64,000 bases of DNA. It comes from a virus. Shown here in pieces: positions 1,448-61,332 of this stretch. Below the pieces are notes generated by a model. That model searched no databases and had not been told where the DNA came from. It saw only the letters and a list, made by a program, of their open reading frames with translations. Each line of letters begins with the position of its first letter. Positions within the stretch are counted from its first letter, which is position 1. The stretch lies in the IMG/VR virus record IMGVR_UViG_3300025314_000001, positions 1 through 64,000 of that record; one strand, given 5' to 3'. The position numbers and the translations under genes are program-made.

Positions 1448-1879
1448 ATGAAAGCACGCAAATACGAAGGTTCACGAAGCGATTTCATCCGCGAGCAGCC
1501 GGACAGTCTGTCGACGTCCGCAGTCATTGCGGCCGGCAAGCAAGTCGGCCTGAAGATCACGGAAAACCTAGTCCGAATCGTCCGCTACAAGATGAGAAAA
1601 GCGGCCGGTACGGTCACCAAGCGCGGGCGCCGCAAGGGGACCGACGCTATCCAGGTAGCGCCTGCGCAGGCCACCAAAACGCGGCGTGGCCGGCCGCCGA
1701 AGAACCCTCCAGTTGCCACCGACGCCGATCCAACGGGCATGCCATTCGACAAGGTCGGAAGCCGTTTACCTCTACCAGAACTCGCTTCCTCGGCGCGGGA
1801 CGCGGACAGCTTCTGCCGACTCATCACCCGCATCGGTACCACGAAGGCCCGGGCTCTCTTGGACGAGCTAGAGAAGTGA
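1448..1879 (+). CDS. Basic putative DNA-binding protein with AT-hook-like motif
   Basis: ATG at 1448 (MKARKYEGSRSDFIREQP...), RRGRPPK and KRGRRK motifs; the upstream extension of the ORF is only read-through from the array. Confidence 0.7.
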   Translation: MKARKYEGSRSDFIREQPDSLSTSAVIAAGKQVGLKITENLVRIVRYKMRKAAGTVTKRGRRKGTDAIQVAPAQATKTRRGRPPKNPPVATDADPTGMPFDKVGSRLPLPELASSARDADSFCRLITRIGTTKARALLDELEK

Positions 1880-1995
1880 CCCTCCCCCTCTTCCTTATCG
1901 CGACCGGAATCGCGATGTTCTTCTACCTGCTCGGCTTCAGCGCCGGGCAGAAGTCCAAAAACGACATCCAATGGAGAGACACGCATGCCACCTAG
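1876..1995 (+). CDS. Small membrane protein (39 aa; not in ORF track)
   Basis: GTGA overlap with the previous stop; MTLPLFLIATGIAMFFYLLGFSAGQK... has one hydrophobic helix. Confidence 0.55.
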   Translation: MTLPLFLIATGIAMFFYLLGFSAGQKSKNDIQWRDTHAT

Positions 1996-2326
1996 AAAAC
2001 TGACCGTTACCCAAGAGACTCCGGGTCCCGAGGTTCAGGAATCATTCCTGGCAGATCCCCAAGATCCACGCACCTACTCGGCCTCCGAAAAGGCTACACT
2101 CAAGGGCCGGGTGGATTCAATTACCGCCGAGGTCGAGGACCTGAAGCGCCAGATCGACCTCAAGAAAGAACTCCTGAGCGACGCCGTGTTCGAGCTCAAG
2201 CAGGCGTTGGGTGGGAAGCCCTTCAAGGACGTCCACGGTAACGTCTGGATGTTCTCGAGTCGCGGCAAGGAGAACCCCACCCACTTCCTGCGGCGTCAAG
2301 GCGCGCAGGACATCGAGGAGCTGTGA
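1985..2326 (+). CDS. Hypothetical protein (coiled coil)
   Basis: GGAGA RBS, GC3-biased codons, operon packing. Confidence 0.75.
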   Translation: MPPRKLTVTQETPGPEVQESFLADPQDPRTYSASEKATLKGRVDSITAEVEDLKRQIDLKKELLSDAVFELKQALGGKPFKDVHGNVWMFSSRGKENPTHFLRRQGAQDIEEL

Positions 2327-3105
2327 ACCACCAACCCCGTTCCTTAGCCCAGCAGAACGGATGCCAGCAAGCCGAGGCATTCTGCCTGATGCTCTACCGA
2401 GACACCGCCGGCAACGAGGAGTGGATCTGGAACTCCCGGGACGGGGTTACCCATTTCATTGTGCAGTCCCGTCAAGGCCTGGAGTCAAAGCACGTCGAAT
2501 GGACCCGCGATCGATTCCTTCCGTACCACTTTCCGAAAGTCGGAGAACGGATCTTCGTGGACACAACACCAGCGCGGGCCAGGGAGCGCGCTGAAACCTG
2601 GTACGACAGATTTGCGGCGCACCTCGTATGGTCCTCGGACTTCGTAATCCGCCATCCAGACCGCGAAAAGGCCATCACCAACAAGGCCCAGGAAATCCTC
2701 GCCTACATGGCGCCGAACTCCCCCGACCTCATCGAAGTCACCGAAGAGGTGCAGCAACAGATCATGGACCGCCCAGCACTGGTGCTCTCGAGAGAGAAGT
2801 GGGCTCAATTACAGCGTGAACTGCTCGCCGAGAACGCCAATCTGGCGCAGCTTGCCGAAGCTAAGGCAGTACAGGTCAACCAACTGACTCCAGCAAGAAA
2901 GCCTATGCGTGTCACCATTACCCCCACGGCCTCGATCGTTCAGCTGAACGATTCTCCCTGCCGGGTCTGGACCGGGACGACCGAGCGAGGGATTCCAGTC
3001 ACGCTTTACGTTACTCGTGTCCAGGTCGACCTGGACCGAGACCAGTCGGAGTTTCTGGCCGAGCTCACAGAAACGGAACCACCCAAGATCCAGCTGCCTC
3101 TGTGA
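2323..3105 (+). CDS. Hypothetical phage protein
   Basis: GTGA overlap with the upstream gene; 260-aa ORF with natural composition. Confidence 0.75.
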   Translation: MNHQPRSLAQQNGCQQAEAFCLMLYRDTAGNEEWIWNSRDGVTHFIVQSRQGLESKHVEWTRDRFLPYHFPKVGERIFVDTTPARARERAETWYDRFAAHLVWSSDFVIRHPDREKAITNKAQEILAYMAPNSPDLIEVTEEVQQQIMDRPALVLSREKWAQLQRELLAENANLAQLAEAKAVQVNQLTPARKPMRVTITPTASIVQLNDSPCRVWTGTTERGIPVTLYVTRVQVDLDRDQSEFLAELTETEPPKIQLPL

Positions 3106-3254
3106 CTGGTTTGCTAGGGGGTCCCTGGGGTGCTACAGAAAGTGAGCCCGCGGCGCTATCAACGCCCGGGCTCGGCCCCAGCGACTCCGCAAGAGTCCAA
3201 TGGGGCAAGAAGACGCTTAGCAGCCGGCCGGACTGCTAGCAAGCGAGGGAAACC

Positions 3255-6200
3255 ATGAAACTCATATCCACCGGTGACCATCACTGGAACGAGCGCCGTC
3301 GATTCGCCGAATCCGTGCGGATTCACCGCGAGATAGCGGAGCTTGTCGCCGCCGAGAAGCCCGACGTATTCCTATCCGGCGGAGACCTCTACGAAGGGGC
3401 GTCCACTCCGGTGGAGCGGGAGGCGGTAGCCGATTGGGTGACGTCGGTGGCGGAGCATTGCCCGGTCCTGGTGACCAAGGGCAACCACGATCGCCCGGTG
3501 GACTGTCTCCTGCTACGACGTCTTCGGACCCGTTACCCGGTCATCGTCGAAGAAGGCGCGGGGCTACACCGGATCGGTGGAGCTCAGATCGCCGCCATGG
3601 CGTGGCCGACGCGAGAAGGTCTCTTGAAGATGTCGGTCGACACTGAGGTCGACCGGGATGCCCTTACTTCCGAGGCTCTACGTGCTGTTCTGCGCTGGCT
3701 CGGTTCACAGTTCGAAGACCTGCATGGACCGCGCATTCTTCTCGGCCACTTCATGGTCGACGGGTCCGTAACGAGCACCGGTCAAGAGCTCGTCGGCGCC
3801 CCGTGTAGCGTGGCGCTTTCCGACCTGGACCTCGTGGGTGCTCAGGTCGGCCTAATGTCGCACGTCCACAAGTTCCAGCAGTGGGATTCTACCGGGACTC
3901 CCTACCTGTACACTGGGAGCCCCCTGCGGCAGAACTTCGGTGAGCTAGAGGACAAGTCGGTCACCCTCGTCGAATTCGACGGGCCGAAGCTGGTGTCGAT
4001 TCGGCAGGTGCAGACCTCGGCGACCCGGATGCTTCTACTCGACGGGGAATGGTCCGTCGACCATTGGAAGCCAGGACCCGTAGGACCTGGGTGCACTCCG
4101 CTGATGGAGCCTTCCGGAGCCGAGATCCGGTTTCGATACCGGTGCTCATCCGAGCACCGAACCCAGGCAGCGGCGGCCGCGTCCAAGATTCGAGACGACC
4201 TTCTCGCCAATGGCGCCGTCTCGGTGCAGGTCGAGCCGGTGATCGAGGTCAAGAACTCCGCCCGCGCCCCAGAGATTGCGCTGGCGCGCGGAATGGCCGA
4301 GAAGCTCCCGGCCTTTTGGGCCGCCCGGGCTACCACTCCCGAGGAGCCCCGACGGTCCCGCCTGCTCGACCTGGCATGCCAGGTCGAGGCCAATACCCCC
4401 CGCCCGGTTGGGATTTCGACCGGTGCCGCCCTCTTGGACTGGATTAAGCTCCGGGGGATCGGTCCCTTCAAGGGCACGGTGGAAGTCGACTTCCGGAACC
4501 TGCCGCCCGGGATCGTGGCCCTAACGGGTAGGATCGGGGCTGGCAAGACCACCCTGCTGGACTCCTACGCCGCGGCGCTCTACCGGAAGCTCCCGACGTC
4601 CGAGCGGGGGCTCCTGTCCAAAATGGCGGTTTCACGCGACGCGTTCGTGGACGTCGGCATCCAGAACGGGAAGTCTCTGCGTATCGTTCACGCCATCGAC
4701 GCCGGCAAGCAGACCGCCGGCTGGGAGGTGTCGGTATACGACCGCGCGGCGGATGGTTCCGAGTCGCTCACCGGGTCGAGCAAGGTTTCTTCCTTCGACG
4801 ACTGGCGGGATCGGAACATGCTCCCGATGGAGATCTTCCTTGCAGGGCCCTACCAGGCCCAGGGGGCGAACGCGCTGGTCAATGCCCTCGATTCCGAGCG
4901 GGCTTCGATCATCCTGCGGGCTCTCGGGCTCGAGTACTACGAGACCATGGCCGAGACGTTCCGGAAGCGCGCCAGCGCGGCCAAGGAAGAACTCGAGAAG
5001 GCCACGGCCCGCGTGGACGACGAGCGGGCCCGCGGGGGCTACGTCGCTCAGTGCGAGCAAGCTGTGATCGACGAACGCATGGGGCTCGGCCCGTCCCAGT
5101 GGGCACTCCAGGTAGCCCGCGACGCTCTCACGGCTGCCGAGCAGGCGCTCCGGGAGCACTCCAGGGCCCAGGAGGCCTACCTGGAGGCCGTGGCGGCTCG
5201 CGGGGAGCTCGAGTCCAAGATCCGGGACAACCGCGCCCAGCATGCCGACCTGACCGAGCGGCTGACGAACAACCGGAAGCGGCTAGACCAGAAGCCGAAG
5301 ATCTTGGCCGCGGTGAAGCGCTCGGACGAGCTTCGGGCCAGCGTATCCGCTGCCGAGGCGGAGCTGGCCCGGCTCACGGCCGAGCACCAGGGGCTCCAGC
5401 GGGAAGAGTTAGCGCTGCGCCAGGAAGCCGCCGGCAACAAACAATCGTCCGTATCGGCTCAGGCTCGGGCGGACGCCGCCAATCGGCGCCTCGGACGAAA
5501 GCCTGATATTGACGCCGCCGCGGCCAGCATCCCCGGGCTTCGAGCGGCCTGGGAGGAAACATCGAAAGCAGCTGAAGAAGCCGTCCAGATGGTCCGCGGC
5601 GACGTGGCGGCTGCCGAAGCGGAGCTCGATCGGCTCCGTGGGCTGCGTGTAGCTGGGGCGGACGAGCGGATCTTTGGGCTCCGTAGTGGACTCGCTTCCG
5701 TCGTGGAGTGCGAGGGCGAGGCTGAGGACATGGCCGAGCTAGCGGCCTCCGCCCTTGACCGCGATACCATCGCCCTGGACACAGCCGCCGAGCTCCCGTC
5801 CCAAATCACCCGCCAGGCTGCCGAGGTCACCCGTCTGCGCCGGCTCCTGGATACCGTCACCCTGCAGACTGGACAAAAGCGCGACGAAGCCGCTCGGGCG
5901 CTGTCCAAAGCCGAACAGGTTGCGGTCGAGGCAACGCACTTGGAGGCAGCCCAAGCGGAACTCGAAGCCGCGCTCGGTGACCTACAGCGCTACCAGCAGG
6001 CCGAGCGGGCTTGCGTCGCGAAGTCCACTGAGGTCGTACAGCGCCGGACTGCCGCCGGCAGTGAACGCGACACCAATGAGCGAAGGCTCGCTTCGCTCAA
6101 GGAAGAGCTCCAAAAGCTCGCCGCAATCGTCGCCTACAAGGAGCAGGCGGACAAGGCGGAGGCTCGAATCGAACAGCTCGAGAAGGAGCTCAGGCGTGTC

Positions 6201-57236: not shown

Positions 57237-58874
57237 TCAACTCATGGTCGGCAGAAACCTAGACCGCATCGCCCGGTCACGTTCCGCCTGTTGGGTGTTG
57301 CAGAGTTCGTCGTGCAGGGCCGCCAACGCATCCACGATATCGTCGTGGTCGTCTTTCTTGGGGTCCCCGGTGAACGACAGGACCTCGTTCAGGAAGACGT
57401 CGACCCATTCGCCGTAGAGCTCAGAGTCTTCTCCGGGCACGAATATGTGTCCCCGTTTCCCTTCGATGGGTTTTCCTTCGTCGTCGGTCGGAACGTTCCA
57501 AGTGGATGAGACCGGGGTTGCGCGGACAAGCTTGTCGGCCGTCGCGCGCAGGGCTCTCAGATAGGTTCGGTTGTTGGCGTCACAGAGGTGCTTTGCGATG
57601 AACTGCGCAGTGCCCTTCTCTCCTCCGCCACCGATGTACCATCGGATGATTCCCCGGCGTTCAGTCAGCTTCGCCTTCATCGTCAGGACGAACGACGTTG
57701 CCTCGACCTGCTTTCGCTCCATCCCGACAACGTAGATGTCACTTCCGAAGATGTAGCCGCGGAGCAGCACCGACCAGTCGGATTTGGTGCCCACCGTGTA
57801 GGCGAGGTCGGCGCCGTAGGCGATCGCGTACCCGCCTTCGCTCGGGAGCCTGGTGAAGCGCTGAACTCCATTAAAGAGCGCTCCCTCGACGGTCTTGACG
57901 AGCCAGTTACCGTCGCGGAGCTGAAGGCGCCTGACGCGGTCTGGAATCGACGCAACGCGCGCCCCGTACTTCGGGTCTGCCCTCGGGTTGTCCGCGAGCA
58001 TTGCCGGAATGAAGGTCCGCGAAAGTGACTTCGGTGTGCCGTCTGGGTTCAGGACCCGTTCTCGGCAGTAGACCTCGTTCCCTGCATCATCGAGGTAGAC
58101 GTGCCAGATTTCTCCGGGCTTGGCCGGAGGAAGCTGTCCAGCCTCGTCTTTGCGCTCTGTCAGTCCCTGCGCTTTGAAGTTCGGGTTGAGCCACGCCCCC
58201 CAGCGTCGGAAGACCCACTCGTGCCCGTTGCCGCCGGGGTTGGTGGTAGCCCGCACGTAGACCGGGAGTCCAGGACGACTTGATCGGTTTCGTCCAATGA
58301 GGAAGGTGTACTGCTGCTCGGTGAAGTGAGTGAGCTCATCGAAGATCAGAAGGTTGATTTCCCAACCGTCGTAGTTCTTCCAGTCGTCCTCGTTGTTGCA
58401 GTGGCTGAGACTGACCTCGGCACCGCTCGGAAACGTCCACCGATAGTGAGGGCTCTGGACCTTCGTCGCACCGGGGCACACCGCCGGGTATAAATCCCAG
58501 CTCTTGTGAATGAGGTCGTCGAGATCTTTGCTTTGGCGACGCAGGATGAGAGTCCGCATCCCCGGCAGGTGACCCCACTTGAGCGGGAACGCGACGGATG
58601 CGGCGGATTTGCCACCCCCAGCGGCCCCGCCATACAGTACCTCATCGCAATCGATGTCCCAGAAAAGCTCCTGAGGGCTTTTCCCGTTGTCGTAGGTGGG
58701 CCTGCCTTCGACGGGCGGATTCGGATTCCAGACTGCGGAGACGTCAAGCGGAACCGGGTCCGACTCTTCGTCCTCAACCGCCCGCAGTCTCGCCAGCCTC
58801 GCGCCGGCGATCGAGCTCCATGAGGTCTTCGAGGATCCCCTGGAGAATCTTTCTTGCAAGAACCCCTTTGACAT
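57237..58874 (-). CDS. terL: Terminase large subunit
   Basis: LYGGAAGGGKS Walker A, LIFDELTHF Walker B, ATTNPGG, RTFIPA.L.DNP, GADLA, HDDIVDA nuclease. Confidence 0.96.
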   Translation of the reverse strand: MSKGFLQERFSRGSSKTSWSSIAGARLARLRAVEDEESDPVPLDVSAVWNPNPPVEGRPTYDNGKSPQELFWDIDCDEVLYGGAAGGGKSAASVAFPLKWGHLPGMRTLILRRQSKDLDDLIHKSWDLYPAVCPGATKVQSPHYRWTFPSGAEVSLSHCNNEDDWKNYDGWEINLLIFDELTHFTEQQYTFLIGRNRSSRPGLPVYVRATTNPGGNGHEWVFRRWGAWLNPNFKAQGLTERKDEAGQLPPAKPGEIWHVYLDDAGNEVYCRERVLNPDGTPKSLSRTFIPAMLADNPRADPKYGARVASIPDRVRRLQLRDGNWLVKTVEGALFNGVQRFTRLPSEGGYAIAYGADLAYTVGTKSDWSVLLRGYIFGSDIYVVGMERKQVEATSFVLTMKAKLTERRGIIRWYIGGGGEKGTAQFIAKHLCDANNRTYLRALRATADKLVRATPVSSTWNVPTDDEGKPIEGKRGHIFVPGEDSELYGEWVDVFLNEVLSFTGDPKKDDHDDIVDALAALHDELCNTQQAERDRAMRSRFLPTMS

Positions 58875-59304
58875 GCTGGTTCAGGTGCTTTTCGACGATG
58901 TCGAGAAACTCCTCTTTCGCTTGCTTGACCTCGACATTGACCTTCTGCCCGTACTTGCCGGGCCTGGTCCGCTCAAGCAGGAAGGCCAGCGCCGTCCATT
59001 GCCCATTACGAATAAGATGTTCGTTGCCGTTGGCGTCGGTGGTGAATGCGTCTTGACCCGCTTTTTGGATGGCTTCGAGCGCCGTCTGCTCGAACATTGC
59101 CTGAGCCTGGTTGACCTTCGTGGCGAAGTCCGTGTAGGCGTTCGTTCTGCCTTCACTCAACGCCTTGTCTCCCCAGCGCTTCCACTCGTAGATAAGCTGG
59201 CGAGACAGCCCGCATCGCTCAGCTGCTGTGGATAGCGGCATCCCCTTGTTGGCGCAGACGCAAATCTTGTTCGTGGTCTCTGTGTCGGGTTTCTGTGCTG
59301 CCAT
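58774..59304 (-). CDS. terS: Terminase small subunit (HTH)
   Basis: AAERCGLSRQLIYEW HTH; WTALAFLLERTRP.KYG; overlaps terL. Confidence 0.8.
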   Translation of the reverse strand: MAAQKPDTETTNKICVCANKGMPLSTAAERCGLSRQLIYEWKRWGDKALSEGRTNAYTDFATKVNQAQAMFEQTALEAIQKAGQDAFTTDANGNEHLIRNGQWTALAFLLERTRPGKYGQKVNVEVKQAKEEFLDIVEKHLNQHVKGVLARKILQGILEDLMELDRRREAGETAGG

Positions 59305-59307
59305 GGA

Positions 59308-60027
59308 CTATTCCGCGGCGGTCGACTCGGGCTCTCCGGCTTTGCGCATTCGGAAGATCTCACGGAGCTTGTCACCGGACTGGAAGCGGTTCGCCTCGAG
59401 TCCAAGCTCTTCCAGAAAGGCCGCCGCGTCTTCTGGCGACTTGAACACCGAGACGAAGTAGAAGTCCGTGGTGTTGTAACGAGCCCCAGCCTCGGCCGTC
59501 TTCGCAACAACCTCACGCGCTGCCCGTAGCCGGTCGGCCATTTCCTCAAGCTTTTGTGCCTCGGCGTTGTCGACCTGGTCTCCGAGCATCCGCATGACGT
59601 CGGCATCGTCGAATCCGGTAGCCTCCAGGTCGAGCCCCGGCAGCATCTCGTTGAGCTTCTCTGGATCCCAATCGCCCTGAGCGGACCAGTTGTTCAGGAG
59701 CAGGTTCGCTTCCTTCTCCTGCTTTTCGTCAAGGTCGACTACCGCAACAGTCAGCAGATAGTCTGGCTTCGTCTCCATCTGGTCTAGAATCGAGAGCCGC
59801 TGGTGCCCGCCAACGAGGTTCCCTGTGCGCTTGTTCCACTGCACGGGCCCCAATAGTTTCAGCTTCTTGATCCCGTTGCGAAGCTTCTTTCGTGCCGCAT
59901 CGCTGATGCGGCGCGGGTTGTAAGGCGCATTCTTGAGCTCACTCCGTCGCCTTACCTCACAGACGAATCCTTCGAATTGCGTCAGCGTGAGCTCTTCGAG
60001 TGAACTAGCCGAGTCCATAGAACTCAC
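59308..60027 (-). CDS. ParB/Sulfiredoxin-like N-terminal domain protein
   Basis: APYNPRRI, PVQWNKRTGNLVGGHQR, EKEANLLLN. Confidence 0.88.
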   Translation of the reverse strand: MSSMDSASSLEELTLTQFEGFVCEVRRRSELKNAPYNPRRISDAARKKLRNGIKKLKLLGPVQWNKRTGNLVGGHQRLSILDQMETKPDYLLTVAVVDLDEKQEKEANLLLNNWSAQGDWDPEKLNEMLPGLDLEATGFDDADVMRMLGDQVDNAEAQKLEEMADRLRAAREVVAKTAEAGARYNTTDFYFVSVFKSPEDAAAFLEELGLEANRFQSGDKLREIFRMRKAGEPESTAAE

Positions 60028-60676
60028 GTCGCGCCGGGACTACCCCGACGTAGGGAAAGACCTGGGCAATCCGATCGAAGTCATCAGGGTAGTTGTCAAA
60101 GAGCCACAGCAATCGAGGGATCGACAGATCAATCCCGGTCGTTTGGGTGCCCTTCTGAGCGTCTGGCAGCGGTATGTTCCGAGCCTTCAAGTACGCCAGC
60201 ACGTCGAACTTGTTCCACCCGACAATCGGGCAAATCGTCTTCGTTCTCTGCGCCTTCCGCGCGTTGGATGCGCGGAACATGTAGTCGGCTCGACGCTGCC
60301 CGTTGGCTATCAGCCGAATTCCCGTGTCTTGCGCAGCCACCTCGTAGATATCCTGAATGGAGAGCTTCTCGAGGTCGCTGTATTGGTCGCGCACAGGGCA
60401 GAAGATCTCGTTCTGTAGCGACACCAAGACTTGCGGGTGAATGTACTCCCGGACCGTTACCCCCCAGCGCTCCTTCGCGTAATCCATGAGCGGCTGACAG
60501 CACCGCAATCCAGGCAGGAACGACATGAAGAAAGCCTCCATCCGCTTGAAGGCTCTCGAACAGAGGTCGATGACAGCGAGACTGTCTTTTCCGCCTGAGT
60601 AGGCGACCAGAACAGCCTCGCTCTCATCCGCGGCTTCGCGCAGGATCCTTTCGGTCTCCTGCCATGGCCGCTCCAT
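60005..60676 (-). CDS. PAPS-reductase-family (PP-loop) protein lacking the reductase Cys motif
   Basis: AYSGGKDS PP-loop, GQRRADYMFR, PIVGWNKFDVLAY; no C-terminal ECGxH. Confidence 0.88.
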   Translation of the reverse strand: MERPWQETERILREAADESEAVLVAYSGGKDSLAVIDLCSRAFKRMEAFFMSFLPGLRCCQPLMDYAKERWGVTVREYIHPQVLVSLQNEIFCPVRDQYSDLEKLSIQDIYEVAAQDTGIRLIANGQRRADYMFRASNARKAQRTKTICPIVGWNKFDVLAYLKARNIPLPDAQKGTQTTGIDLSIPRLLWLFDNYPDDFDRIAQVFPYVGVVPARREFYGLG

Positions 60677-60690
60677 CGCTTTCGGCAAGT

Positions 60691-60804
60691 TCAGCCTGCG
60701 GAACTGCCCACGCCGGGCGTAAAGCGGATCGCTCCGCCGCCAGATGCCTTACTGAACCTCACGGGCGCCTTTCGCACGGGAGCCTTCTTTTTTCGAGCTG
60801 CCAT
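60691..60804 (-). CDS. 37-aa basic peptide MAARKKKAPVRKAPVRFSKASGGGAIRFTPGVGSSAG (not in ORF track)
   Basis: GGAGG RBS; C-terminal 22 aa nearly identical to the next peptide. Confidence 0.85.
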   Translation of the reverse strand: MAARKKKAPVRKAPVRFSKASGGGAIRFTPGVGSSAG

Positions 60805-60863
60805 TGTTCAACCTCCGGAGGGTTGTTGTTGTCGAACGCCGGACGACCCGGCGAGTCGTCTGT

Positions 60864-61025
60864 TCACCCAGCAGAACTACCAGCGCCGGGCGTAAAGCGG
60901 ATCGCTCCGCCGCCGGCTGCTTTACTGAAACGCGCCGGGGACTTCCTACTCTCCCGACGCAATTTGGACTTCACGTCGTAGGGTCCACCCTTGCGGGTGT
61001 AGCTGGGTAGCTTTGCTGATGCCAT
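60864..61025 (-). CDS. 53-aa basic peptide MASAKLPSYTRKGGPYDVKSKLRRESRKSPARFSKAAGGGAIRFTPGAGSSAG (not in ORF track)
   Basis: GAGGTG RBS; paralogous C-terminus with synonymous third-position changes. Confidence 0.85.
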   Translation of the reverse strand: MASAKLPSYTRKGGPYDVKSKLRRESRKSPARFSKAAGGGAIRFTPGAGSSAG

Positions 61026-61110: not shown

Positions 61111-61203
61111 CTACTTCCCCTTACCTTTTCCCTTGCCCTTGCCGCCCTTGGGCATCTTCGGACCGCCGTTTCCCTTACCTTTGCCTTTTCCGCCGCATCC
61201 CAT
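61111..61203 (-). CDS. 30-aa Gly/Lys peptide MGCGGKGKGKGNGGPKMPKGGKGKGKGKGK (not in ORF track)
   Basis: AGGAG RBS; GK repeat encoded with varied synonymous codons. Confidence 0.7.
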   Translation of the reverse strand: MGCGGKGKGKGNGGPKMPKGGKGKGKGKGK

Positions 61204-61258
61204 GATGGTTTTCTCCTGTTGCTGCCGCCGGACGGCGGCTTGAAGTCTTCGAATCTAG

Positions 61259-61332
61259 GCCCGGAGGCGGGAGTCGAACCGCGCTGCTTCCGGGGTATGA
61301 ACCTCAGTGCCCTTCCGTTGGGCCACTCCGCA
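61259..61332 (-). tRNA. Degenerate tRNA with CAT anticodon (Met/Ile2-like; possibly pseudo-tRNA)
   Basis: D-arm GCCC/GGGC, loop TT-CAT-AC, T-loop GGTTCGACTCC, acceptor CGGAG/CTCCG; mismatches in the stems; no encoded CCA. Confidence 0.6.

Follow-up and report, generated by a model that had tools for sequence, protein, structure and literature searches.

What kind of gene set do two tiny, very basic, glycine-tailed proteins form with the PP-loop and ParB-like genes that follow them at the head of a phage packaging operon? To address this question, we examined the 64,000-nucleotide window comprising positions 1 to 64,000 of IMG/VR virus record IMGVR_UViG_3300025314_000001. The original prediction was that two short ORFs with strong Shine-Dalgarno (SD) sequences share a C-terminal tail under selection, and that they precede a PAPS-reductase-family protein that retains its PP-loop but lacks the catalytic ECGxH motif, an overlapping ParB/Srx protein, terS and terL. 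We found every one of these parts in place on the minus strand, and the observation is therefore confirmed. The positions of the genes are collected in the table below.

Genes at the head of the packaging operon, in order of transcription
Coordinates	Strand	Feature	Size	Start signal or boundary
61111..61203	-	GK peptide MGCGGKGKGKGNGGPKMPKGGKGKGKGKGK, the first gene of the operon; role unknown		AGGAG SD
60864..61025	-	pepA, basic protein, paralogue 1, ending ...RFSKAAGGGAIRFTPGAGSSAG	53 aa	GAGG 7 nt before its ATG
60691..60804	-	pepB, basic protein ending ...RFSKASGGGAIRFTPGVGSSAG	37 aa	GGAGG 8 nt before its ATG; stop 2 nt before the TTG start of the PP-loop gene
60005..60688	-	Predicted PP-loop ATP pyrophosphatase of the PAPS-reductase fold, not a PAPS reductase		TTG start
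59308..60027	-	Predicted ParB/Srx-fold protein with NPR, VGGHQR and LNN motifs		Overlaps the end of the PP-loop gene
58774..59304	-	Small terminase (context)
57237..58874	-	Large terminase (context)

We first sought to determine if the two small ORFs are real genes. The tails of pepA and pepB match at 20 of 22 residues, and at the DNA level this corresponds to an 83-nt direct repeat that is 82% identical. Between the two tails (24 codons), we observed 9 synonymous and 4 non-synonymous changes (pS 0.45, pN 0.08). We then compared pepB with its orthologue in a near relative, L003, whose enzyme is 92% identical, and observed 20.5 synonymous and 6.5 non-synonymous changes (pS 0.69, pN 0.08). These values are close to those of the neighboring enzyme gene (pS 0.56, pN 0.04), indicating that the peptides are under purifying selection. 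The GK peptide shows 0 non-synonymous and 6 synonymous changes over 28 codons against L003, and another locus, L010, has a similar CGGKG... peptide in the same position. In contrast, pepA is absent from L003 and is thus a lineage-specific extra copy. A third variant of the peptide, P0003, apparently lies on the same 1217-bp contig as P0005, an enzyme that is 76% identical; this is inferred from the matching source and size of the two contig records, and the contig context itself was not inspected. A feature that had not been predicted is that the tail looks like an internal duplication of one motif, RFSKASGGGA followed by (I)RFTPGVGSSAG. Thus, in this phage the family motif appears to be duplicated within the tail, and the gene itself is duplicated with unrelated N-terminal parts.

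We next examined the genes downstream of the peptides. The PP-loop protein hits Pfam PAPS_reduct (PF01507) at 1.4e-11, with 45 bits against a cut-off of 22.5. It carries AYSGGKDS at residues 29-36, and among 51 homologues S31, G33 and K34 are invariant while G32, D35 and S36 are at least 90% conserved. In the AF2 model, which has a pLDDT of 91.6, the strand formed by residues 25-29 is followed by a helix from residue 34, as expected for the pyrophosphate-binding loop of the adenylating PP-loop enzymes. Its nearest folds are TtuA, including the complex of TtuA with the sulfur carrier TtuB (5gha), LarE, TilS, the GMP and NAD synthetases, and APS reductase (2goy and 4bwv). However, the protein ends in ...ARREFYGLG and has no ECGxH motif, no Cys is invariant or nearly invariant in the 51 homologues, and the best cysH scores in NCBIfam are 14-17 bits against cut-offs above 150, indicating that it is not a PAPS reductase proper. 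Likewise, it does not qualify as a DndC or BrxP DNA phosphorothioation enzyme, since the BrxP, DndC and QueC hits cover only the 30-residue PP-loop and no Cys is conserved.

The next protein hits phrog_9353 at 1.7e-54 and phrog_620 at 3.6e-28, and its motifs are conserved in 22 homologues, including the VGGHQR motif that represents the GxxR-type motif of the ParB/Srx superfamily. There is no Pfam ParBc hit at E <= 0.1, but a Foldseek search with its model matches CDP- and CTP-bound ParB N-domains (6sdk, ParB-CDP, at 3e-6, and 7bm8, 7bnr, Noc and KorB) and then sulfiredoxin, placing it in this superfamily with an NTP-binding ParB fold. As to whether it resembles a chromosome- or plasmid-partition ParB, no HTH family was detected, the C-terminal half is modelled with low confidence, and no ParA-like gene lies in the operon, observations that do not settle the matter either way. 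Every close homologue that has upstream DNA in its locus has the PP-loop gene upstream, so the pairing appears to be obligate. The terminase genes that follow were identified by hits to phrog_4102 at 2.7e-15 for the small subunit, and to phrog_979 at 9.4e-57 and Pfam Terminase_6N and 6C for the large subunit.

Given that the peptides and the enzymes are encoded side by side, we asked whether homologous PP-loop/ParB pairs also carry short basic upstream peptides that end in Gly, since the absence of such peptides had been put forward in advance as an outcome that would overturn the idea. We assembled 51 non-redundant phage loci with this enzyme pair, with GC contents of 34-69% and enzyme identity down to about 26%. 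Of these, 34 have an ORF that ends within -130 to +60 nt of the PP-loop start, finishes in Gly and has at least 2 Gly in its last 7 residues, whereas the rate among 4830 background ORFs is 2.3% (binomial P about 1e-33). We also applied a stricter test, requiring a basic ORF with at least 3 Gly, located anywhere on the gene strand. By this test, 37 of the 51 loci carry 49 such ORFs, and there is 1 on the opposite strand. None of 36 ParB-only loci has such an ORF, and the 35 distant PAPS-only loci have three chance-like ones. Loci without an upstream copy carry Gly-tailed basic proteins elsewhere in the module. The idea thus survived strongly, and the peptides and the two enzymes form one conserved functional unit of which the C-terminal Gly-rich tail is the conserved feature. 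At this locus, pepB fits the module in that it lies beside and co-oriented with the enzyme gene, has a KR fraction of 0.24 and no acidic residue, and ends in ...GVGSSAG. Two details of the original prediction need correcting. The S-x-G ending holds only for this lineage, the common tail being RRKSxGGxGG, and about a third of the upstream peptides do not end exactly in Gly (for example ...GAGSGR, ...GAGQ and ...GGGGA), such that a free terminal Gly is frequent but not universal.

We considered whether the tail could be a by-product of the ribosome-binding site of the next gene. Only 9 of 33 tails contain an SD-like word, most Gly codons are GGC or GGT, and loci with gaps of 25-84 nt to the next gene keep the tail, so this reading was rejected. 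Strong SDs stand before nearly all of the peptide genes, and stop/start overlaps with the enzyme gene are common; no expression data were obtained. No Rfam family matched the repeat, which provides no support for an RNA element there, and no DNA-level match to cultured phages was found.

Sequence searches for relatives of the peptides found little outside this phage lineage: 3 hits among 5.8 billion proteins, one viral contig and one metagenome contig. A family profile found 7 hits among 1.84 billion representatives, all of 43-52 aa, of which six end in ...RRKSxGGxGG-type tails and the seventh runs on past RRKSSGGHG. Pfam, PHROGs, NCBIfam and PADLOC have no model for the peptides, and a search of a protein atlas gave nothing usable. 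The family is too short for sequence search and has to be found by gene context.

The same two protein families are found in the same order, before terS/terL/portal, in phages and prophages that include three cultured phages, in which they are annotated as a PAPS reductase family protein and a ParB-like nuclease: Bacteroides phage BS-TP2 (gp54/gp55), Riemerella phage RAP44 (gp33/gp32) and Lactobacillus phage LR1. BS-TP2 gp53 is a 53-aa protein ending in ...GANGSNG, and LR1 has a 141-aa basic protein ending in ...GSSGKSSG between the two genes, while the RAP44 peptide is unannotated and ends in ...ANGAI. These pairs are only annotated, no function has been measured for them, and the records do not link the small protein to them. 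In the library searched, we found no paper on the trio or on a peptide partner of PAPS-reductase/ParB pairs. More distant counterparts are IbrA/IbrB and YbdN/YbdM of E. coli, a relation that rests on domain content; no direct comparison was made, and no IbrA or IbrB model matched in NCBIfam.

Other systems offer partial precedents. The QueC-family enzymes of Cap9-CdnD (type IV CBASS deazaguanylation) and QatC-QatB are small PP-loop ATP pyrophosphatases that act on a flexible, Gly-bearing terminal tail of a partner protein encoded beside them, with the carboxylate activated as an acyl-adenylate and attacked by an amine (10.1101/2025.04.06.647259; PMC13279940), and a profile of the phage enzyme weakly matches Cap9 (9nto_B, 9.4e-5 over 40 residues). 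However, the phage enzyme belongs to PF01507 rather than to QueC, and pepA and pepB start with MA and thus lack the N-terminal MG(G/T)S motif given for the substrates (PMC13279940); only the separate GK peptide starts with MGCGG. In those host defense systems, the protein supplies the N-terminal Gly amine and the nucleobase CDG supplies the carboxylate, whereas in the phage-borne system, which has a ParB partner, the conserved Gly is C-terminal and the peptide would supply the carboxylate. Ubiquitin-like and sulfur-carrier proteins (ThiS, MoaD, TtuB and Urm1 with E1-like enzymes; TtuA-TtuB) are small proteins with a C-terminal Gly-Gly-type tail, and such tails are substrates for adenylating enzymes. 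The phage peptides do not belong with these proteins: at 37-60 aa for the family, basic and probably disordered, they are too short for a beta-grasp fold, pepA and pepB have no family hit, no E1-like gene lies in the operon, the PP-loop enzyme has no conserved Cys or Fe-S site, and the tail is ...GSSAG rather than GG. With regard to the ParB partner, a phage ParB homologue, ParB176, activates the 5mYOX176 enzyme on double-stranded DNA (PMC13229309), and DpdB likewise acts with DpdA (PMC12839542). In both cases, a ParB N-terminal NTP-binding fold is encoded beside, and needed by, an enzyme that acts on double-stranded DNA, but those enzymes are a dioxygenase and a transglycosylase, and no peptide component is involved.

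Our analysis establishes that pepA and pepB are real, selected genes, and that they belong to a family of small, basic, probably disordered proteins with a Gly-rich C-terminal tail. Apart from the few chance-like ORFs noted above, this family occurs only together with one phage-specific pair of a PAPS-reductase-fold PP-loop ATP pyrophosphatase and a ParB/Srx-fold protein. The trio is found in many unrelated phages and usually stands just before the terminase genes, and the peptide gene is mostly translationally coupled to the PP-loop gene. What the trio does has not been measured and is a matter of inference, and we favor the following model only tentatively. The tail would be the substrate of the PP-loop enzyme, which most likely uses ATP to adenylate the free C-terminal carboxylate, as other PP-loop enzymes (NAD synthetase, QueC/Cap9 and LarE) do to carboxylates, and the activated peptide would then be passed to a nucleophile. 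The ParB-like partner most likely brings double-stranded phage DNA to the enzyme, as phage ParB homologues do for the 5mYOX176 dioxygenase and as DpdB does for DpdA, and the acceptor is therefore probably on phage DNA, around the time of packaging. There is no biochemical or structural evidence for adenylation or transfer, and the acceptor has not been identified. No PP-loop enzyme is known to adenylate a protein C-terminus, the published cases using the N-terminal amine of the protein as the nucleophile. For those peptides that do not end in Gly, the tail would need trimming, or the carboxylate is not the reactive group. Some members are 90-150 aa long and occur as several copies per module, which fits an abundant DNA-binding protein as well as a substrate. 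A co-fold of enzyme, pepB and ATP, a check of the kind suggested beforehand, scored 0.00 against a mark of 0.32, a result classed as no answer that counts neither for nor against binding. The original interpretation is thus supported in part: the functional linkage of peptides and enzymes holds, but it is not shown that the peptide is adenylated, ligated to DNA or protein, or modified RiPP-style, that ParB acts as a phosphotransferase, or that the role is DNA condensation or counter-defense. A bolder version of the model, which we regard as unlikely but not excluded, is a new kind of conjugation system in which the enzyme activates the C-terminal glycine of a ribosomally made basic peptide and joins it covalently to phage DNA, with the ParB partner loading the enzyme on DNA at packaging. 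This would be the first peptide hypermodification, or peptide end-cap, of a viral genome. In this lineage, the acceptor could instead be the N-terminal Gly or the lysines of the co-encoded MGCGGKGK... peptide.

Among the alternatives, the least improbable, although still doubtful, is that the peptides are abundant DNA-binding or DNA-condensing proteins, either packaging accessories or packaged with the DNA, while the PP-loop/ParB pair modifies DNA or the peptide by another route. The Gly tail would then be a flexible docking element that recruits or regulates the enzymes and is not covalently activated. The very basic composition (KR 0.2-0.37, with almost no acidic residues), the strong SDs, the position at the head of the packaging operon, the longer multi-copy members, the fact that the module precedes three different terminase families and the lack of a terminal Gly in about a third of the upstream peptides all speak for this view. 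However, composition alone does not explain why the tail so often ends exactly in Gly, and this view does not explain the distribution of such proteins across pair, ParB-only and PAPS-only loci or why the gene is so often coupled stop-to-start with the PP-loop gene. It is unlikely that the peptide is instead a carrier or a modified product, with its C-terminus becoming a thiocarboxylate or an amide, as in TtuB-TtuA or ThiS, or with the peptide maturing as a RiPP-like or microcin-C-like peptidyl-nucleotide. The top structural neighbors, TtuA and LarE, are both sulfur transferases, the Gly-rich tail resembles those of sulfur carriers, and microcin C shows that ribosomal peptides can be C-terminally adenylated. 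Nevertheless, the absence of a conserved Cys makes an Fe-S cluster or a persulfide unlikely, the peptides are too short for a beta-grasp, no E1-like enzyme, desulfurase, export or immunity gene was seen beside the trio in this operon or in the three annotated phages, and the obligate ParB partner and terminase context point to DNA rather than to a secreted product.

Equally unlikely is a regulator of late gene expression in which the peptide would be a cofactor or an anti-factor. IbrA (PAPS-reductase-like) and IbrB (ParB-like) are reported to activate prophage eib genes (Sandt et al. 2002), the trio is the first set of genes in the late/packaging operon, and KorB and Noc are among the fold matches of the ParB-like protein. 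However, a regulator made from the operon that it would switch on comes late for that job, and an intact ATP-pyrophosphatase motif with invariant residues argues for chemistry. Finally, the small ORFs could be non-functional leaders that only couple translation, or a chance DNA repeat, given that they are very short, of low complexity, without a Pfam or PHROG family and often unannotated. This reading is very improbable and already largely refuted by the purifying selection on the amino-acid sequence and by the co-occurrence of the peptides with the enzyme pair. The conservation of the C-terminal motif across the divergent loci described above and the lack of an RNA family on the repeat also count against it.

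Genes of this enzyme family are among the most common auxiliary metabolic genes (cysH, sulfur metabolism) called in viromes. Our results show that this phage subfamily lacks the catalytic cysteine and is tied instead to a ParB-like protein, to a glycine-tailed peptide and to the terminase genes, so the sulfur-metabolism label is almost certainly wrong for it. Since three cultured phages carry the module, its function is open to direct testing. If the peptide is the substrate of the enzyme, this is an unrecognized ATP-dependent peptide-activation chemistry carried by many phages of very different hosts, and the likely consequences concern how packaged DNA is marked, protected or condensed.

The window is the first 64 kb of an IMG/VR virus record that is 106,685 bp long and has direct terminal repeats, and the genes considered here lie on the minus strand, at the start of the structural and packaging operon. 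We first sought to determine if the two small ORFs of the original prediction, pepA and pepB, are genuine genes. Each follows a good SD, and their C-terminal 22 residues differ at two positions. At the DNA level, the shared region is a repeat of 83 nt that is 82% identical, and between the two tails we count 9 synonymous and 4 non-synonymous changes (pS 0.45, pN 0.08). The only close relative for which we had sequence is L003 (IMGVR_UViG_3300025174_000872), whose enzyme is 92% identical. L003 keeps pepB with 20.5 synonymous and 6.5 non-synonymous changes (pS 0.69, pN 0.08), indicating that pepB is as constrained as the neighboring enzyme gene (pS 0.56, pN 0.04). L003 lacks pepA, indicating that pepA is a recent extra copy. 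A third variant, the 55-aa protein P0003 (...RFSRSAGGGAIRFTPGVGSSVG), has yet another N-terminus, and it appears to share a 1217-bp JGI contig with P0005, an enzyme that is 76% identical, judging by the matching source and size of the contigs. The pattern is therefore one of a free N-terminal part and a fixed tail that ends in Gly, and the observation that prompted this analysis holds. The coordinates of these and other features are collected in the table.

Features of the window and of related loci
Feature	Location	Strand	Size
pepA	window 61025-60864	-	53 aa
pepB	window 60804-60691	-	37 aa
PAPS_reduct-family PP-loop enzyme	window 60688-60005	-	
ParB-like protein	window 60027-59308	-	
Overlap of the longest terL ORF with the end of terS	window 58774-58874	-	101 nt
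Gly-Lys (GK) peptide	window 61111-61203	-	30 aa
Hairpin before the SD of the GK peptide	window 61224-61239	-	
tRNA-like element	window 61262-61330	-	
Insertion between ParB and terS	L003 4960-6505		about 1.5 kb
Four basic proteins around ParB	L093 1973-4303		90-150 aa
Four basic proteins around ParB	L099 2078-4406		90-150 aa
Stretch without annotated genes upstream of the PAPS-reductase-like gene	L063 (Lactobacillus phage LR1, MH837542.1) 1531-3453		1.9 kb

We next examined the genes downstream of the peptides, which are as originally described. The first is a PAPS_reduct-family protein (PF01507, 1.4e-11). In an alignment of 51 homologs, S31, G33 and K34 of its PP-loop are invariant and G32, D35 and S36 are nearly so, while no cysteine is conserved and the ECGxH end of CysH is missing. 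The model of this protein (pLDDT 91.6) matches adenylating PP-loop enzymes in general, namely TtuA (including its complex with the sulfur carrier TtuB), LarE, TilS, GMP and NAD synthetases and APS reductase. The second gene overlaps the end of the enzyme gene. Its product hits phrog_9353 (1.7e-54) and ParB-like PHROGs, carries NPR, VGGHQR and LNN motifs, and has a predicted fold like that of the CDP/CTP-bound N-domain of ParB, Noc and KorB, and more distantly like that of sulfiredoxin. The terS and terL genes follow. The longest terL ORF runs into the end of terS, so the real terL start is probably further downstream. In the window the ParB-like gene and terS abut, whereas the near relative L003 carries an insertion between them.

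Given that the original prediction would fail if homologous enzyme pairs lacked upstream peptides of this kind, we tested whether such pairs carry them. For this purpose, loci were collected with the enzyme as query, with ParB as query, and from cultured phages. Every ParB of the roughly 230-aa orthologous group that has upstream DNA in its locus has the PP-loop gene upstream, while ParB-methyltransferase fusions do not. Of 51 non-redundant pair loci (GC 34-69%, enzyme identity down to about 26%), 34 have an ORF that ends within -130 to +60 nt of the enzyme start, finishes in Gly and has at least 2 Gly in its last 7 residues, and 32 of these have at least 3 Gly. Among 4830 other small ORFs of the same loci the corresponding rates are 2.3% and 0.6%, which gives binomial P values of about 1e-33 and 3e-48. 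With a stricter definition (basic, at least 3 Gly, ending in Gly), 37 of the 51 pair loci carry 49 such ORFs on the gene strand and 1 on the other strand. In contrast, 36 ParB-only loci carry none, and 35 distant PAPS-only loci carry 3, all chance-like. Loci without an upstream copy have Gly-tailed basic proteins between or after the two enzyme genes, examples being the 141-aa protein of Lactobacillus phage LR1, L077, L093, L097 and L099. In L093 and L099, the Gly-tailed partner has expanded into a small gene family of four proteins, all but one ending in ...S(T)GHSGG or ...GSRGG (one ends ...STGRNGH). Bacteroides phage BS-TP2 gp53 (53 aa, ...GANGSNG) is an annotated example of the peptide. 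In the GenBank record of phage LR1, the stretch upstream of the PAPS-reductase-like gene has no annotated gene.

The commonest form of the peptide is 40-65 aa long and follows the pattern MA..IQRRI..TG..R......RRKSxGGxGG. MAFFT aligns the RFSKASGGG of the window's peptides with that C-terminal motif, and the extra RFTPGVGSSAG looks like a second copy of the same motif, although this is our reading of the sequence. We also asked if the glycines could be a by-product of the ribosome-binding site of the next gene, and found that they are not. Only 9 of 33 tails contain an SD-like word, most Gly codons are GGC or GGT, and loci with 25-84 nt between the peptide stop and the enzyme start keep the tail. 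Many peptide stops do overlap the enzyme start (TAATG, TGATG). In the window the enzyme starts at TTG 2 nt after the stop, and in L003 it starts at GTG directly after it, indicating that the two genes are translationally coupled.

With regard to genomic context, in 9 of 10 sampled loci the next large gene is a large terminase, and these terminases are of three different Pfam types (GpA, Terminase_3 and Terminase_6). The three cultured phages show the same order up to the portal gene. Thus, the module goes with the start of the packaging operon, not with one packaging mechanism. In the window, the operon is opened by the GK peptide, MGCGGKGKGKGNGGPKMPKGGKGKGKGKGK, which has an AGGAG SD and shows 6 synonymous and no non-synonymous changes against L003. 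The locus L010 has a similar CGGKG peptide, MKFSKCGGKGTKKGRGKGKGR, in the same position. After Met removal the GK peptide would begin with Gly, like the substrates of Cap9 and QatC, but the suggestion that it is an acceptor is pure speculation. Just before its SD lies a hairpin, GCCGCCGTCCGGCGGC, which is conserved in L003, where the homology between the two phages begins, and which may be a start-of-operon regulatory element. Directly upstream of the operon is a tRNA-like element with the anticodon loop UUCAUAC (CAU). It scores 28.6 bits against Rfam tRNA, just under the gathering score of 29, it is not called by ARAGORN, and its acceptor stem is 5 bp, followed by a G:G mismatch. This element is absent from L003.

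While the constraint on the peptides and their association with the enzyme pair are results of the analysis, what the three genes do is inferred and has not been measured. The original prediction held that the peptides are substrates that are adenylated and ligated to DNA or protein, or are modified RiPP-style, and this interpretation is supported only in part. An intact PP-loop means ATP alpha-beta cleavage with an adenylated intermediate, and many PP-loop enzymes adenylate carboxylates. The lack of any conserved Cys argues against reductase, Fe-S or persulfide chemistry, that is, against an enzyme of the CysH, DndC or TtuA type. Two published systems show PP-loop enzymes of the QueC family acting on a flexible Gly-bearing terminus of a neighboring protein: Cap9 joins a deazaguanine carboxylate to the N-terminal Gly of CdnD, and QatC-QatB appear to do likewise. 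In the phage module the conserved Gly is at the C-terminus, so the peptide would supply the carboxylate and something else the nucleophile. A phage ParB homolog activates a DNA-modifying dioxygenase specifically on dsDNA (PMC13229309), and DpdB plays a similar part for DpdA. This, together with the terminase context, makes phage DNA the most likely target. Several points weigh against this view, since about a third of the upstream peptides do not end in Gly and some members are long and multi-copy. A co-fold of the enzyme, pepB and ATP gave no verdict, and we found no expression or proteomic data. We regard this chain of inference as a whole as tentative, while we are highly confident that the three genes work together.

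Full-text literature searches found no description of the trio or of a peptide partner, and the enzyme pair is only annotated in phage records. The trio in the window is somewhat divergent, with a duplicated tail motif, a ...GSSAG ending, two paralogous peptides and a GK peptide. Judged on what we tested, this is a real, widespread and uncharacterized three-gene system, and one that can be tested in cultured phages.
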